DNA of 34,601 nt from a virus (taxonomy: Duplodnaviria; Caudoviricetes), in the IMG/VR virus record IMGVR_UViG_3300037789_000041, positions 1 through 34,601 of that record. The stretch is one strand, 5' to 3'. Position 1 is the stretch's first letter, and the number at the start of each line of letters is the position of its first letter. Positions 3,923-29,699 of this stretch are shown here, one piece after another. The position numbers and the translations under genes are program-made. The notes under the pieces are model-generated. The model was given only the letters and a program-made list of their open reading frames with translations. It ran no database searches and was not told where the DNA came from.

Positions 3923-4372
3923 ATGCGCCTCACGCTAAAGCGCCATACCAGCGGGCCAAATTCCACACTGGGGCGGCTGTACATAGACGGTGATTTCGCT
4001 TGTTACACCCTGGAAAACCCGTGGCTGAATAACGAGCGGCGTGTTTCCTGTATTCCGGCGGGTGAATACGAGCTTGGGCTGCGGAAAGAGGGCGGGTGGC
4101 ACGCGCGTGCCCTCACCAAGTTCGAGCGCGGCTTCCACAAGGGCATGTTGGAGGTACTGGACGTTCCCAACCGCTCTTACATCCTGATACACTGGGGTAA
4201 TTATCCGTCAAACACACAGGGTTGCATTCTGGTCGGAGAAACACAACAGGCTGACATGGTCGGGTGGTCGCTGGATGCCTATCGCAAGATATACCCCCAG
4301 ATTGCAGACGCGCTAGTGTGCGGGCATGACGTAACAATAGAGATCACGTCAGAAGAAGAGGCGCTGGCATGA
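3923..4372 (+). CDS. DUF5675-family protein, putative endolysin (L,D-peptidase-like)
   Basis: TLGRLYIDG..CYTLE..SCIPAGEY..VPNRSYILIHWGN..TQGCILVG signature; first gene of the lysis cassette. Confidence 0.75.
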   Translation: MRLTLKRHTSGPNSTLGRLYIDGDFACYTLENPWLNNERRVSCIPAGEYELGLRKEGGWHARALTKFERGFHKGMLEVLDVPNRSYILIHWGNYPSNTQGCILVGETQQADMVGWSLDAYRKIYPQIADALVCGHDVTIEITSEEEALA

Positions 4373-5514
4373 GCGAGCCTTGGGTGCGCAAGGAAGTCAT
4401 CGGCAACTGCACGCTCTATCAGGGTGACTGCTTAGAGGTGATGCCGATGCTTGGCAAGGTGGATGCTGTGGTGGACCGTTGCGATGCGGTGGTATATACT
4501 GAAAAACATGAACAAACAGCAAAAAGGCAACGTCGCGCGCCAGAAAAAAGCGACAGAGATTTGGGAGCCGCGCCGGGCGCAAATCATGGCTCTCTATGTC
4601 AACGGAGACATGTCTCAAGCGCAAATGGCCGCGATGTTTGCTGTCTCGCAGCAGGGGTTCCAGCGGGCAATCGCGAGGATGGGGATTCCATCGAAGGGGC
4701 GGGGCCGGGCAGGGCAATTGAACGGCAGGTTCATCGACGGGACTCAATCGACGGCGTATCGCCAAATGATAGTCAAGGACAAGTGCAATCGCTGCGGGGT
4801 GACGGATCAACTTGTTATTCATCACAAAGACCACGACCACACCAACAACACGCCGGACAATCTGGAAGTGTTGTGCAGCCCTTGTCATACGAGCCACCAC
4901 AAAACGGAATGGTGGCGCTCCCAGAAGGGTGGGCAATCCTGACAGACCCGCCTTATGGCCTTGGCAAAAAAATGCAGGGCGGAACCTGGGGGGCTAAAGA
5001 AGCTAACTCAGGTTTCTTGCGCTGGGATCTAACCGCCCCCGGTTGGCTGCCTAAAGCGATAGGGCGAACGCCTGCCATCGTCTGGGGCGGCAACTATTTG
5101 CCATTCGCGCCAGCGCGCTGCTGGTTGATCTGGAACAAGATTAACTCAGTACCGACCATGGCTGACTTTGAGCAGGCATGGACAAATTTTGACAGGCCGT
5201 CGAAGCGATTTGATCATCCCGTCGGGCGGGTACAACACGGGCATCCAACGGAAAAGCCTCTCCCGCTGATGGAATGGTGCCTTGGTTTCCTGCCTAACGC
5301 CCGAACCATCCTCGACCCCTTTATGGGCAGCGGCACGACTGGCGTAGCCTGCGTCAAGCAGGGCCGTAAGTTTATCGGCATAGAACTTGACCCGAACTAT
5401 TTCGAGATAGCCTGCGAGCGCATCCGGGATGCCTATCGCCAGCCGGACATGTTTATCGAGGCAGAGAAGCCGAATCCTGCTGAGCAAATTGACATGCTGG
5501 AGGAGGCGTCATGA
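4369..5514 (+). CDS. Beta-class N4C/N6A DNA methyltransferase with a 156-codon in-frame insertion
   Basis: LYQGDCL, TDPPY (motif IV), HPTEKP, ILDPFMGSGTTG (motif I), FIGIELD; the usual VDAVV-TDPPY stretch is split by 4474..4941. Confidence 0.85.
   Translation: MSEPWVRKEVIGNCTLYQGDCLEVMPMLGKVDAVVDRCDAVVYTEKHEQTAKRQRRAPEKSDRDLGAAPGANHGSLCQRRHVSSANGRDVCCLAAGVPAGNREDGDSIEGAGPGRAIERQVHRRDSIDGVSPNDSQGQVQSLRGDGSTCYSSQRPRPHQQHAGQSGSVVQPLSYEPPQNGMVALPEGWAILTDPPYGLGKKMQGGTWGAKEANSGFLRWDLTAPGWLPKAIGRTPAIVWGGNYLPFAPARCWLIWNKINSVPTMADFEQAWTNFDRPSKRFDHPVGRVQHGHPTEKPLPLMEWCLGFLPNARTILDPFMGSGTTGVACVKQGRKFIGIELDPNYFEIACERIRDAYRQPDMFIEAEKPNPAEQIDMLEEAS
4472..4500 (+). promoter_or_regulatory. Sigma70-like promoter for the nested HNH gene (probably leaderless mRNA)
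   Basis: TGGACC-17 nt-TATACT, with ATG 4508 seven nt after the -10 and no RBS. Confidence 0.5.
4508..4942 (+). CDS. HTH + HNH endonuclease nested in the +1 frame inside the MTase gene
   Basis: MSQAQMAAMFAVSQQGF (HTH), GQLNGRFIDG, CNRC..IHHKDHDHTNNTPDNLEVLCSPCH (HNH/Zn). Confidence 0.85.
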   Translation: MNKQQKGNVARQKKATEIWEPRRAQIMALYVNGDMSQAQMAAMFAVSQQGFQRAIARMGIPSKGRGRAGQLNGRFIDGTQSTAYRQMIVKDKCNRCGVTDQLVIHHKDHDHTNNTPDNLEVLCSPCHTSHHKTEWWRSQKGGQS

Positions 5515-8602: not shown

Positions 8603-8927
8603 TAGTCACCTTTACGGCGTAATCAGCAGCAGCCTTCCGCTCCAAGCGTTCAATCTCGGCAGCGCATAGCGCGGCAGCACGAATCAAATCGCGGGTGGGG
8701 TTTTTGGGTTTCCACCACTGCGCGTCCCAAGGCCAATCGGGCGGGGGCGGTGCTTTTCTATATTCGCCGATACCAGCGTAAAAATTGCGCCTCGCTGAGT
8801 GAGCGGCATAACAGGCTGCTGCAACCGCCATTTCACCACAACGATGTTGATCATCATGTTCAGGGGTCCACCCCTCGTCGTCGATCTGACGCCTGCGCTC
8901 GTCAACAATCATATTCGTCGCACTCAT
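8592..8927 (-). CDS. Conserved phage protein (ERRRQ..EGWTPEHDDQH..WPW family)
   Basis: Recognisable motif; ATG 8927 overlaps the stop of the HNH gene. Confidence 0.7.
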   Translation of the reverse strand: MSATNMIVDERRRQIDDEGWTPEHDDQHRCGEMAVAAACYAAHSARRNFYAGIGEYRKAPPPPDWPWDAQWWKPKNPTRDLIRAAALCAAEIERLERKAAADYAVKVTSDE

Positions 8928-9340
8928 GCCTTTTCCTTCCTCTCTGCTTTCATCTTTTCCGCCCAAGCCTTCTTCGCCTGGTATGCTGCTTGCCGCTGTT
9001 CCCTCGTGGGCTGCGGTATAGGCTTGCTTTTGCGGCTCCGCTTGGGTTCGCCCATCCGCTCCCGCTCCAGCCGCGCAGCCTTTGCAATCGCGTGCTTGTC
9101 GCTGCCGTAGGTAGTGGCCTTCGGACCTTTGCCGTTCGTCTTCACGTCGGCGCAGGACTTGTGGGCGTAACGCATGTTCTCTAGGTCATCAGATCCACCA
9201 AGGGCCAGCGCGTGCATGTGTTCCCGGATCACTTTATCTGTAGGCAGAAGGCGCTTGCCGCAGAGAGGGCAGATAACGACGCCCTGCGCAAAGCAAATCT
9301 GGCGGGCCATTGCTGGCGTCTCTGTGCGGCGAGTGGTCAT
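8924..9340 (-). CDS. HNH endonuclease
   Basis: CPLC...EHMHALALGGSDDLENMRYAHKSC. Confidence 0.75.
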   Translation of the reverse strand: MTTRRTETPAMARQICFAQGVVICPLCGKRLLPTDKVIREHMHALALGGSDDLENMRYAHKSCADVKTNGKGPKATTYGSDKHAIAKAARLERERMGEPKRSRKSKPIPQPTREQRQAAYQAKKAWAEKMKAERKEKA

Positions 9341-9508: not shown

Positions 9509-9952
9509 TTAGACGGCGTACTGCCGTCCTTCCAAAATATCTTCTACCTGCTGTTCAAGCTCCGGCTTGTTGATGCCGGGGATGACCTTTGCGCAGATCA
9601 GTTCAACGGCTGCGGTGTAGAACTCATCAAATTGAAGCTGATCCATCTTGGAGAAGCTGATAGACTTGGCTTCCACCGACACGCTCCCATCCAAAAGAAC
9701 GAAGGTGTCACAGTGCCCGAGTGCTATTGCGATGGCTTTACGGAACCCATCACGCGTCGCGTAGCCGGACTGGTGCGGAAACACTGCATCAAGCAGGGCA
9801 AAATACTTCCGCGTGTGCTTCTCGTTGCGGGGGAGGGTGATCTTTGCCTTGACGGTCCGCCCTTGAGGCAAGGCCGCAAGCGCTTCCTCATCCCACCGGC
9901 TGACCGGGTAGAGGGCACCCATTTTCCGCCTCAGATATATCTCGGTTGCCAT
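9509..9952 (-). CDS. DUF1367-family protein
   Basis: PRNEKHTRKYFALL...KSISFSKMDQLQFDEFY; start at ATG 9952 after GAGG. Confidence 0.7.
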   Translation of the reverse strand: MATEIYLRRKMGALYPVSRWDEEALAALPQGRTVKAKITLPRNEKHTRKYFALLDAVFPHQSGYATRDGFRKAIAIALGHCDTFVLLDGSVSVEAKSISFSKMDQLQFDEFYTAAVELICAKVIPGINKPELEQQVEDILEGRQYAV

Positions 9953-9959
9953 GTCGGCC

Positions 9960-10397
9960 TCAAAATGGAATGTCGTCGCCGAAGTCATCAGCGCCACCGC
10001 CGGGACCAGACGCAGCAGGCTCCTGTCGCGGAGTGTCCCCGCCCGACTTCCCGTCCAGCATCACAAGCGTTGCGTTGAACCCTTGCAGCACAACCTCGGT
10101 GGAGTACTTGTCAGCGCCGGACTGGTCCTGCCACTTCCGGGTCTGCAACTGACCCTCCAGATAGACCTTTGAGCCTTTGCGCAGATATTGCTCGGCGATC
10201 TTTGCCAGCCCTTCGGAGAAGATCACTACGCGGTGAAACTCAGTCTTTTCCCGGCGCTCGCCAGTGGACTTGTCGCGCCAGCTTTCAGAGGTAGCGACGC
10301 GCAAATTAGCGATGGCTTTCCCATCCTGTGTGTGGCGGACTTCGGGGTCTGCGCAGAGGTTGCCGACAAGGATGACCTTGTTTACTGATCCAGACAT
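9960..10397 (-). CDS. ssb: Single-stranded DNA-binding protein
   Basis: [33 protein letters not shown], acidic DDIPF tail. Confidence 0.95.
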
Positions 10398-10406
10398 GTT
10401 TGCTCC

Positions 10407-11102
10407 TTATGCTGCCACTGCTTTGAGGGCGTCTCGCCTGCGTTCCATGGCGGCCCACAGTTCGCGCTTCATATCGGCGGGTAGCGTCTTGAGCACCCCG
10501 CGCTGTGTTTCGACGAAGGCGTCGATTTCTTCTTCTGCATGGACATTGCTTTCCAGCATCGACAGCAAAAGCCGATAGAGGTTGCGGTGCGTTCGGTCAC
10601 CCCATTGCTGCCTGTCAGCAGCCTGATGCAAAGCGTCTTCTAGGGCCGGGCGGCATTCCTTCTTGATCCGTCCGTACTCGTCCAGATCGACCCAAGGCGA
10701 GGCAATGTCATACAGGTAGCGGCCAATGCCCCACCGTGTGCAGGCGCGCTTGAAGGCGTCGGAGAACTGCCCCTTGTCGCCTTCCATGTTAGTCTTGCCT
10801 GCGCCGTCGGCTTTCCACACCCACTCACCGTCAACGCGGATGCCGACTTCGCAGCAGGTTGCCCCGTTGCCCGCATCCACGTAGCGGTCTTGCCAGTTCT
10901 CAGGCCCGACAACCTGGTCTAGCCGGTCGGCGTAGTCGCGGGCGTCCAGATAGGCGAGAGCGGTTCCCTGCGTTGGGCGCGCATTGCTGTTCTTCGTTTC
11001 ACGCTGCACCTTCTTTGCGTTGGTGTTGCCGACACGCCAATGCACAAGCTGCGGCGGGAACGGTTCGCAAAGCTGATCGAAAATGGTAATCTCAATGTCC
11101 AT
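10407..11102 (-). CDS. Rad52/Rad22-family (Sak) single-strand annealing recombinase
   Basis: LAYLDAR..RLDQVVGPENWQ..KGQFSDAFKRACTRWGIGRYLY; adjacent to ssb; GGAGG RBS before ATG 11102. Confidence 0.85.
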   Translation of the reverse strand: MDIEITIFDQLCEPFPPQLVHWRVGNTNAKKVQRETKNSNARPTQGTALAYLDARDYADRLDQVVGPENWQDRYVDAGNGATCCEVGIRVDGEWVWKADGAGKTNMEGDKGQFSDAFKRACTRWGIGRYLYDIASPWVDLDEYGRIKKECRPALEDALHQAADRQQWGDRTHRNLYRLLLSMLESNVHAEEEIDAFVETQRGVLKTLPADMKRELWAAMERRRDALKAVAA

Positions 11103-11319
11103 GGTGTTCCTCCGCCATACGCGCCGCGCGGACACAGGCGTTGATTGATCCGACGGCATCCCAAGCCCTCTCAGACAATGCCGCCTCATGTGAAAGGCCA
11201 CCGAAACTGGCGAAGGCATTACGGATTGCCAGAAGCTCCCGGTTGATCGCGTGCAGCCGTTCTTTCGCCTCCGATGGTGTCATCTTCGCTTCCGGCTTCT
11301 CTGTAAGGGGGGTGTTCAT
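11092..11319 (-). CDS. Hypothetical protein
   Basis: 75 aa, ATGA coupling, GGAGG RBS. Confidence 0.55.
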   Translation of the reverse strand: MNTPLTEKPEAKMTPSEAKERLHAINRELLAIRNAFASFGGLSHEAALSERAWDAVGSINACVRAARMAEEHHGH

Positions 11320-15361: not shown

Positions 15362-15543
15362 GCGACATTATCCAATTACCCAACTCCAATAACATCACAC
15401 AGCCCAAGCCTGTGGACGTACTGGAACACGTCATTAGCACATTGGAAGCGCTGCAATCTGATTCAAACTATGTCTGTGCAGCAATCGACTTGTTGAGGGC
15501 TGAATTGCGCACGCGTGGGGCGGCGGAGATCTTTGATGTTTGA
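15358..15543 (+). CDS. Hypothetical protein
   Basis: 61 aa, GTGA coupling, GGAGG RBS. Confidence 0.5.
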   Translation: MSDIIQLPNSNNITQPKPVDVLEHVISTLEALQSDSNYVCAAIDLLRAELRTRGAAEIFDV

Positions 15544-16132
15544 GGCGCTTGTAGCATTCGAGCGCTCGGGCCGTGTTCGTCAGGCATTGCGCGACATTGG
15601 CATTGACGCCTGGTCGTGTGATCTTGTGCCAGCCGATGACGACAGCCCGCATCACATTGTCGGCGATGCTTTGACCGTGATGAATCGCAGCGGGAGACTG
15701 CTTATAGCACACCCGCCGTGCACCCGCCTAACCCTTGCCGGTGTGCGCTGGCTGCATGAGCGCGAACTCTGGTCAGATCTGGACGACGCCTGCGCAATGT
15801 TCCGCGCTTGCCTTGAAGCTCCCTTCACTCACATTGCCGTGGAAAATCCGACACCCCACAAGCACGCTGTAGAACGGATCGGGCGCACCTATGACGCAGT
15901 AAGCCAGCCATGGGAACACGGTCACGGAGAAACCAAGCGCACCTGCTGGTGGCTCAAGGGCCTGCCCCCGTTGCTCCCGTCAAATGTTGTCGAGGGCAGG
16001 GAAGGGCGCGTGTGGAAGATGCCTCCGGGGCCTGATCGTGCGCGGCTTCGGTCTGAGACCTTGCCAGGTGTGGCGGCTGCTATAGCAGACCAGTGGGGAC
16101 CATTTGCACGTGTTCAGGAGGCGGCCAAATGA
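15536..16132 (+). CDS. Phage-type C5 DNA cytosine methyltransferase
   Basis: ALVAFERSGRVR..DAWSCDL, IAHPPCT (catalytic PC), AVENP, RSETLPGVAAAIADQWG. Confidence 0.75.
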   Translation: MFEALVAFERSGRVRQALRDIGIDAWSCDLVPADDDSPHHIVGDALTVMNRSGRLLIAHPPCTRLTLAGVRWLHERELWSDLDDACAMFRACLEAPFTHIAVENPTPHKHAVERIGRTYDAVSQPWEHGHGETKRTCWWLKGLPPLLPSNVVEGREGRVWKMPPGPDRARLRSETLPGVAAAIADQWGPFARVQEAAK

Positions 16133-28628: not shown

Positions 28629-29028
28629 CCTTAGCTGGCCCGTGCAACAGATGGTCTATGCGACCCTGACAGCAGATGCAGGAGTTAAGGCTTTCGTTGG
28701 CACGCCCGCGCGTGTCTATGACAACCCGCCCGCTAACCCGACATTCCCATATCTCACGATAGGCGACGACACAGCCCGCGAGTTTGGCGCGCAGACATTC
28801 GACGGGCAGGAAATCACGCTCACCATCCACGCTTGGTCGCGCTATGGCGGGCGAAAGGAAGCCAAGCAGATCGCGGGGGCGGTCTATGACGCATTGCATG
28901 ACCAGTCACCGAGCCTCACGGGCGGCACGCTGGTTAACCTGCGCTATGAGTTCGGCACGACCATGCAAGACCCTGACGGGCTGACGTGGCACGCCGCCTC
29001 CCGCTTCCGCGCTTCGGTGTGTGACTAG
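28621..29028 (+). CDS. DUF3168 tail terminator
   Basis: RVYDNPP..FPYLTIG..LTIHAWSR..GRKEAKQIA. Confidence 0.85.
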   Translation: MSDLSWPVQQMVYATLTADAGVKAFVGTPARVYDNPPANPTFPYLTIGDDTAREFGAQTFDGQEITLTIHAWSRYGGRKEAKQIAGAVYDALHDQSPSLTGGTLVNLRYEFGTTMQDPDGLTWHAASRFRASVCD

Positions 29029-29699
29029 TGACGGTGCCGCATGTGCCAGAGCGCTGGACGCCGGGCCCGATATGGGAAGGCGAGACGGCGGTTATCATCG
29101 GATCTGGCCCCAGCCTGACCAAGCAGGACCGGGACTATACACAAGGCAAGGCGCGCGTAGTTGCCCTGAACCGGGAATGGTTCTGGACGCCATGGGCTGA
29201 CATGCTTTATGCGTGCGACGGCAAGTATTTTTTTACGCAGGATGACCAGCCGCACGGCGGAAAGGCGGCTTACAAGCATTTTGGTGGGTTGATCGTGACG
29301 CAGGACTTCCGCGCCGCTGCTGACCTGCCAAATCTAAAATGGGTGGAGATTTCGCCGCCCGGCATCAAGAACATGGCCGACCTTAGCGGATACGATGACC
29401 GCCCCGGATACATACGCTCCGGCAAGGGTTCGTGCTATCAGACGATGAACCTGTTGGGGCATCTCGGCGTCAAGCGCATTCTGTTGCTTGGCATCGACAT
29501 GAAGTTTGCCCCGGACGGCCGCCAGCACCATTACTCAGAGCCGCCACGCGGGCTTGCAATCAGCGCGATAGAACGCATGCGGACATTCTTTGACAGCATC
29601 GCCGGGCATCTTGAGGCGCGCGGGATTGAGGTCATCAACTGTTCACCAGACAGCGCCGTTGAGGCGTTCCCTAAAGCCAGAATTTACGAGGTGCTTTGA
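29028..29699 (+). CDS. MptE-like/DUF115 (Maf-type) transferase-fold protein
   Basis: IIGSGPSL, VVALN, YACD, ILLLGIDM, VINCSP motifs. Confidence 0.6.
   Translation: MTVPHVPERWTPGPIWEGETAVIIGSGPSLTKQDRDYTQGKARVVALNREWFWTPWADMLYACDGKYFFTQDDQPHGGKAAYKHFGGLIVTQDFRAAADLPNLKWVEISPPGIKNMADLSGYDDRPGYIRSGKGSCYQTMNLLGHLGVKRILLLGIDMKFAPDGRQHHYSEPPRGLAISAIERMRTFFDSIAGHLEARGIEVINCSPDSAVEAFPKARIYEVL

Follow-up and report, generated by a model that had tools for sequence, protein, structure and literature searches.

The general design of the locus described here, a nuclease gene hidden out of frame in a host gene that requires no splicing, was already published in 2025 for the ShiLan domain, an HNH endonuclease residing in the mycobacteriophage methylase gp65 (Arsenault, Gosselin, Gogarten 2025, PMC11855218; Gosselin 2023, PMC9957025); our statements on this and the other published systems refer to the portions of the papers covered. 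In its covered portion, the 2025 paper proposes leaderless initiation from a larger transcript, contains no selection test and does not use the word 'promoter'. The 2023 paper applies to ShiLan the same test against a single clade of filled alleles that we use below, and the words 'purifying', 'synonymous' and 'promoter' do not occur in the portion covered. A second hidden HNH-like insert, in gp60 of Pacc40 (PMC11855218), is likewise open in the host frame and has free-standing relatives upstream of related methylases. In the T4-like phages, mobA represents an HNH gene inserted into the conserved topoisomerase gene 39/60, where it overlaps host-frame extensions out of frame, HomR replaces deleted host sequence, and the endonuclease has been lost in some genomes (bioRxiv 10.1101/2022.08.31.505936). 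Aeh1 mobE in nrdA, together with other gene-splitting free-standing endonucleases, places an HNH gene in a critical region without an intron or intein, and retention of host enzyme function was shown for Aeh1 (PMC2988022). Out-of-frame nucleases have also been reported inside inteins (bioRxiv 10.1101/2025.01.02.630785).

The locus analysed here lies in a 34.6-kb stretch of phage DNA (34,601 nucleotides, hereafter the window), and it resembles the ShiLan system in several respects: a stop-free in-frame insert in a phage N6/N4 methylase carries an HNH gene in another frame with its stop codon at the 3' end, neither an intron nor an intein is involved, the distribution is patchy, a loop is the proposed fate of the extra residues, and the end of the insert resembles host sequence beside the site. 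The differences are equally evident. The VDAVVTDPPY segment of the ShiLan methylase is uninterrupted, its insert lies far downstream and is offset by +2 (+1 in the window), and it encodes a 195-aa zinc-finger/HNH/zinc-finger protein and not the 144-aa HTH-HNH protein of the window; the two nucleases match with a blastp E of only 0.11, the profile match is limited to the core, and the best promoter-like score at the GTG of ShiLan is 7 of 12. The Pacc40 insert, which shares with our family free-standing relatives of the kind seen in L031, L063 and L069, differs by its +2 offset, by its location in a helicase-like N-terminal gene part and by the lack of similarity to the window HNH profile. As the ShiLan and Pacc40 inserts occupy other sites, are offset by +2 and have at most the HNH core in common with it, the window insert works like a ShiLan domain and is a separate element: judged by these sequence comparisons, it belongs to the same functional class without being a ShiLan domain proper and represents an independent lineage. 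It differs from mobA, whose host gene is split into two ORFs with a ribosome-bypass cassette containing stops or frameshifts, in that the host frame of the window is whole, and from mobE, where the host protein consists of two polypeptides and dual coding through the whole nuclease gene is absent. The mobA replacement region and the gene-splitting endonucleases set earlier examples of a host gene being repaired in other ways. The known beta-class methyltransferases (MTases) M.BceJIV, CcrM, M.RsrI and M1.HpyAVI have the fold and motif order of the window MTase, yet in none of them is motif IV preceded by a loop of about 150 residues. In the literature searched, which did not extend to subscription journals, we found no publication on this motif-IV insert lineage. 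The preliminary description of the locus had missed both the ShiLan precedent and the promoter that the insert appears to carry.

The window represents a whole virus record with direct terminal repeats at its ends and with tailed-phage genes for terminase, portal, capsid and tape-measure proteins, the capsid protein having database matches of at most 39%. A single public DNA run, a pond metagenome that is probably the source and hence not independent support, holds the stretch on one contig with 0 differing letters and no joints or variants; there is no RNA run among the public sequencing runs listed as holding it. Positions 4369-5514 form one open frame of 381 aa that encodes a beta-class N6/N4 MTase (Pfam N6_N4_Mtase, E 6e-21; PHROGs phrog_67, E 5e-44), with VDAVV at residues 31-35 and the insert at residues 36-191 (Table 1). 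Assignment to the beta class follows from motif IV (DPPY) preceding FxGxG and from the Rossmann-like fold of the predicted structure. The MTase ATG overlaps the stop codon of the upstream gene (ATGA), and its own stop codon overlaps the ATG (5511) of the next gene; a DUF5675 gene lies on one side and small genes, including one with an Rz-like spanin match, on the other.

Table 1. Features of the interrupted methyltransferase gene in the window (predicted functions are marked as such).
Feature	Position	Strand	Remarks
MTase N-terminal part	4369..4473	+	35 codons: beta-hairpin, GD motif and helix, VDAVV
Sigma70-like promoter (predicted)	4472..4500	+	TGGACC-17-TATACT; -10 box ends 7 nt before ATG 4508
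468-nt insert	4474..4941	+	156 codons open in the MTase frame; 5' edge uncertain by a few codons
HTH-HNH endonuclease gene (predicted)	4508..4942	+	+1 frame, 144 aa, CxxC/HNH/CxxC core
WAIL strand (insert-encoded)	4930..4941	+	precedes TDPPY; overlaps the tail and stop codon of the HNH gene
MTase catalytic part	4942..5514	+	TDPPY 4942-4956, HPTEKP, DPFMGSG 5314-5334

Several further features of the window deserve mention. A minus-strand ORF of 179 aa (4397-4936) without a Pfam match spans nearly the entire insert and is probably a shadow frame. The motif QxD[LM]F, found at the MTase C-terminus of 23 of 43 filled MTases (5440-5460 in the window), resembles a beta-clamp-binding motif and is a candidate for one. 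Elsewhere the window contains a second DNA MTase (15515-16132, phrog_757), a free-standing HNH gene (8924-9340), NinB, SSB and Erf/Rad52-like recombination genes (9509-11219), which could support homing, and, located between the gene for the tail terminator and that for the major tail protein, a phrog_4603 match annotated as alpha-2,3-sialyltransferase (29028-29699, E 3e-23).

When residues 20-200 of the 381-aa frame served as the query, 23 related proteins were recovered among 778 candidates, 20 of the 23 covering at least 98% of these residues at 40-63% identity; these proteins are open by ascertainment and were kept out of the stop test. The HNH query yielded 97 homologues among 98 candidates. 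The HNH alignment was used to fish for DNA loci, which are consequently not selected for an open MTase frame; it gave 17 viral and 10 distant genome loci besides the best 80 of 162 metagenome matches. The 93 family loci, the window included, comprised 81 with a usable HNH gene, which collapsed into 60 clusters at 95% DNA identity; the 12 loci excluded from the counts either overrun the 3' end (L030, L058, L076), have an artefactual end (L044), are cut at the 5' side (L065, L072, L075, L077-79) or are partial (L073, L097). Distant matches (L001-2, L080-82, L098-109) were excluded as well. Locus classes were assigned from flanking motifs searched in all three frames, independently of stop content, with the labels of L034, L091 and L096 set by hand.

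A tblastn search of the 381-aa protein against 50,697 GenBank phages returned no record spanning 80% of it, and the HNH protein found 4 weak matches in the same set; among the GTDB genomes scanned, 10 distant sequences matched in part, none of them as a full-length member, and a viral scan with a single sequence gave 2 distant loci. One distant locus (L080, approximately 1550-1920) contains a distantly related HNH gene in the +1 frame of a methylase-like gene whose own frame is open, with TACAAT 7 nt upstream of the HNH ATG; the tail of this host gene, RRLTPLEAERLQGFPD, is presumably C5-cytosine MTase-like. Another, in an Intrasporangium MAG (L100, approximately 2380-2657), has a distantly related HNH gene in the +1 frame of an open gene resembling ShiLan gp70. 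In protein P0025, a frame change fuses the N-terminal part of the HNH protein to the insert, read in the MTase frame, and to the catalytic half.

All coordinates given in the preliminary description for the 468-nt, 156-codon open insert proved correct, and the 144-aa HTH-HNH protein that it had placed in the +1 frame was recovered by translation and by profile searches: phrog_7545 (HNH) is matched at E 9e-14, Pfam HNH_3 at E 2e-5 (24.6 bits, narrowly below the cut-off of 24.8), and the HTH matches are weak. The TGA of this gene (4940-4942) sits within the CTG-ACA junction, and its frame is also open further back to TTG 4451 (163 aa). A Foldseek search with the HNH model gave nothing at E of 0.001 or below, only weak HNH entries such as 4h9d (E 0.17) and I-HmuI (E 1.2). 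An alignment of 80 homologues (79 of the 97 plus the query) shows no variation at either CxxC pair or at the His/Asn core. Compared frame by frame, as the preliminary description had suggested, the HNH frame has a pN/pS of 0.17 and the MTase frame across the HNH body one of 2.5 (29 close pairs among 25 colinear loci). These comparisons indicate that the HNH frame is under purifying selection, with the catalytic and zinc-binding residues intact.

Synonymous shuffling of the HNH codons of the window leaves the MTase frame open in only about 1 of 1000 shuffles, with 4.6 stops expected. The preliminary description had considered that homologous inserts might commonly carry stops, so that the frame would be open by chance; across the 43 clusters in which the HNH gene is embedded in an intact MTase, there is not a single MTase-frame stop against 181 expected, while the third forward frame of the same clusters has stops in 43 of 43 and the clusters outside an intact MTase have them in 12 of 15 (1-16 each), this latter group being itself somewhat stop-poor overall (80 observed vs 128 expected). 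Within the 43 clusters, T is absent from all 1063 third positions where it would make a stop, compared with 829 of 3239 at other sites; even before AC or AT, the most T-poor of the harmless contexts, it is present in 43 of 462. On the HNH tree, changes to T number 0 in 10 stop-risk columns and 335 in 61 other columns. The insert varies in length (ten lengths, 435-498 nt), always by multiples of three (40/40), and the GD motif and DPPY share one frame in all 59 loci that show both. A stop in the MTase frame can arise only from an HNH codon ending in T before AA, AG or GA, which the nuclease can avoid cheaply. We conclude from this comparison that selection keeps the MTase frame open and that, across the HNH body, this frame is constrained against stops and not in its amino-acid sequence; the dual coding proposed as the means by which the insert spares its host is thus supported. 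The N-terminal codons of the MTase are under purifying selection (pN/pS 0.33).

Alternatively, the frame could be kept open for translational coupling, or against polarity, in a late or lysis operon, the looped MTase being inactive or irrelevant. The ATGA overlaps at both MTase ends and the lysis-like genes nearby fit such a role, as does the start codon that is found at the MTase stop more often in filled alleles (31 of 34) than in empty ones (48 of 62). Moreover, five clusters without an MTase core (L034/36/37/95, L096, L032/33/38, L091 and L071) and protein P0007, which also lacks it, are still open. Three of these five clusters sit on short branches (0.04-0.2; L032 0.39 and L071 0.38 are long), which is consistent with a recent loss of the core. 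Coupling leaves unexplained, however, why the insert encodes a hydrophobic strand, why TDPPY is invariant and why FxGxG is present in 40 of 43 embedded-intact clusters (the remaining 3 stop at a contig edge), and it accounts neither for scars that keep the strand nor for alleles in which stops block the frame and a new MTase start follows (L028, L031, L063, L069). We therefore regard coupling as a serious rival that may contribute to the open frame, and as an unlikely sole explanation. In one of the core-less clusters, L036 and L095 carry a tandem duplication of DRHAVIA in the promoter spacer at the 5' junction that keeps the frame.

The preliminary description had offered three routes to the MTase, namely one looped protein, ribosome bypass and re-initiation at ATG 4909; the first fits best and the other two are disfavoured, because bypass or re-initiation alone would need no run of about 140 stop-free upstream codons. 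That the insert is removed by an unrecognised form of RNA splicing, protein splicing or bypass might be suggested by its length, a multiple of three, by the canonical motif that excision restores, and by the Thr that follows it, as inteins require. Yet removal of the RNA or bypass would select neither for stop avoidance nor for a replacement strand, the MTase frame shows no amino-acid conservation, and no stop follows any take-off site; we consider removal extremely improbable. Apart from a chance snoRNA match (E 3.4), Rfam scans of the window stretch were negative, as were those of 16 related loci, and the RNA folding of the insert is unremarkable (z -1.43). In agreement with the earlier claim that there is neither room for a ribozyme nor an intein signature, a group I intron was rejected, with no Rfam match, a terminal G in only 5 of 43 clusters and a mere 34 nt of insert outside the HNH ORF, as was an intein, with no Hint domain in the Pfam scan and an insert that starts with D and ends in WAIL. 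A bypass cassette of the T4 gene 60 type was likewise discarded on the criteria found in the covered portion of bioRxiv 10.1101/2022.08.31.505936, the frame being open in 43 of 43.

Translation from ATG 4909 would give MVALPEGWAILTDPPY, and this short product, alone or paired with the N-terminal part, could in principle be the chief active MTase, started there or at a nearby GTG. Most alleles do have an ATG or GTG 11-12 codons ahead of DPPY, and L073 and L097, possibly chimeric contigs, retain the 3' part without the N-terminal one. ATG itself, however, occurs in only 15 of 43, no Shine-Dalgarno sequence is seen upstream of 4909, and the N-terminal codons, which such a product would dispense with, are under the purifying selection noted above and are docked in the structural model. 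The ATG/GTG is a by-product of the HNH codons for EWW. Re-initiation may serve as a minor route; as the main one we judge it very improbable.

The 3' junction offers a view of how the uninterrupted 381-aa protein might work. Empty alleles read V-D-A-V-V-T before DPPY, as had been anticipated from the window alone, and filled alleles have WAIL, IALI, FVLI, LCVV, ICLI and similar sequences at this place, hydrophobic at -5 in 45 of 45, at -3 in 44 of 44 and at -2 in 45 of 45, a pattern met in 10 of 5272 same-frame control windows. Part of the pattern is forced by the HNH stop codon. Nevertheless, L035, L047, L053 and L096, in which this stop is shifted downstream, retain the hydrophobic strand, and over the same 29 close pairs the strand codons have a pN/pS of 0.40 when read in the MTase frame and 0.68 when read in that of the HNH gene. 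Against a clean replacement counts that the new strand is hydrophobic where empty alleles have Asp (61/64). An AlphaFold model based on an alignment of 24 sequences (mean pLDDT 57.9) gives residues 1-30 a pLDDT of 76-93, leaves residues 31-180, VDAVV included, below 50 and disordered, and forms a strand at 188-192; its range 10-355 superimposes on M.BceJIV with a Z of 16.4 (rmsd 3.1, 176 residues). WAIL is accordingly predicted to substitute for the displaced VDAVV strand, with the 30 N-terminal residues docking onto the core, so that the strand proposed ahead of TDPPY finds backing both in the relatives and in the model.

At the 5' junction, the -35 box of the putative promoter straddles the edge of the insert. 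The window promoter by itself is modest (score 9 of 12; 1 found in the scan, 0.3 expected), but its relatives usually show TTGACA-17-TTTAAT or TATAGT at 7 nt, or TATAAT at 5 nt. A promoter scoring at least 9 of 12 and ending 5-8 nt before the HNH ATG is found in 34 of 40 embedded clusters; the corresponding figures are 3 of 15 for the non-embedded clusters and 0.13% for the 46,147 control positions. The spacing window of 5-8 nt was fixed after the sequences had been inspected, and a positional control was used. A stricter scan requiring A at position 2 of the -10 box gave 19 of 42 and misses the TTTAAT boxes. In several non-embedded clusters the promoter lies farther upstream and is accompanied by a Shine-Dalgarno sequence. 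Transcription from sigma70 promoters starts about 7 nt past the -10 box; the transcript start would thus fall on the HNH ATG, and the HNH mRNA is likely to be leaderless. Read as protein, this promoter would account for the VD, VF/VY and GII motifs in the MTase frame. DAVV or TD frequently recurs in the promoter spacer, seemingly as a duplicate of the target segment.

Several observations bear on the mobility of the element. A search with the catalytic half (the best 80 of 203 MTase matches) gave 79 loci, 76 of them parsed: 73 are empty, 2 are scars and 1, on the same contig as L085, is filled. Among the matches listed, the catalytic half of the window resembles that of an empty allele (L116, 73% identity) more than that of any filled allele (at most 53%). 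Of 32 HNH pairs with at least 80% identity, 30 have MTase halves that are only 39-68% identical. The AU test rejects a tree in which all filled alleles form one clade (p=0.000135; 56 rows: 32 of 39 filled, 24 of 62 empty). On the MTase tree, though, filled and empty labels change 16 times vs 31.7 when shuffled; as filled alleles cluster and phage MTases are mosaic anyway, patchiness alone is no proof of homing. The two scars (L180, L185) read DA[V/L]D-GGLAIL-TDPPY, with six extra residues at about 1150-1205 directly before DPPY, and 13 of their last 15 nt match the 3' end of the element vs at most 11 of 15 for empty alleles; the HNH gene was apparently lost through an in-frame deletion that spared the replacement strand. 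L117 and L186 (DAILT) were rejected as scars, being nearer to empty alleles. In-frame deletions within the insert occur in P0023 and P0024. A further form, in L028, L031, L063 and L069, consists of an MTase N-terminal remnant, an HNH gene with 3-6 stops in the other frame and then a new MTase ORF whose start is 50-75% identical to the remnant over 16-31 aa. The HNH tree, which is unrooted and does not give the direction of change, has non-embedded forms scattered across it, with 11 changes of which at least 7 are forced.

These data could also describe an HNH gene that no longer homes, a domesticated or passively inherited module moved by ordinary phage recombination. HNH and MTase identities are indeed correlated (Spearman 0.49), and vertical descent thus contributes too; the N-terminal part tracks the HNH protein somewhat better than it does the catalytic half (0.47 vs 0.36). 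Such passive inheritance explains poorly why the insert occupies a single fixed site within the best-conserved motif, why nearly the same HNH protein occurs in divergent MTases, and why there are empty sister alleles and decay scars; we deem it quite unlikely. Stop depletion, patchy distribution and purifying selection on the nuclease together support the original proposal that the catalytic motif is the site of a mobile element with dual coding.

In our view it is probable that a mobile, likely homing HNH gene sits directly before DPPY, that the MTase frame is kept stop-free, and that the MTase is likely made as an unspliced 381-aa protein with a predicted flexible loop; this last point follows from the selection that keeps the frame open. 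The following sequence of events can be envisaged. Two overlapping frames are open, the nuclease frame under purifying selection and the MTase frame, by comparison of the relatives, constrained across the HNH body against stops only. The last codons of the insert, WAIL, are predicted to take the place of the VDAVV strand while the 30 N-terminal residues redock. The nuclease would be made from its own leaderless transcript, driven by the promoter at the 5' junction, and would nick or cut the empty allele near the codons for DAVVT-DPPY, whereupon recombination would copy the insert in; the altered junction would shield the filled allele. Later the HNH gene might decay through in-frame deletion to the six-residue scar that keeps the new strand or, alternatively, escape to the form with a duplicated MTase start, where stops could then accumulate. 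Taken as a whole, this picture of a self-repairing, splice-free homing element (an active-site strand as target, a -35 box across the junction, a leaderless mRNA, a donated beta-strand and a full life cycle) could equally well turn out right or wrong.

The 2025 proposal of a splice-free nuclease overlapping its host gene was built on about 10 mycobacteriophage sequences and structure prediction (PMC11855218, portion covered). The unrelated family described here allows this proposal to be tested at the population level and brings its own control, since stops are absent inside the intact MTase and present in most copies outside it. The predicted promoter at the 5' junction would offer a concrete answer to the question of expression raised by the 2025 paper, and the apparent replacement of a host strand at the catalytic motif would add a further element to the design. 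Such elements are easily missed, since gene callers often report only one of two overlapping genes. If our interpretation is correct, the working MTase would be part host and part parasite, with a donated beta-strand positioning DPPY, and the family would display the empty allele, the dual-coded insert, a six-residue scar that fixes the strand of the parasite in its host, and an escape by way of a duplicated gene start.
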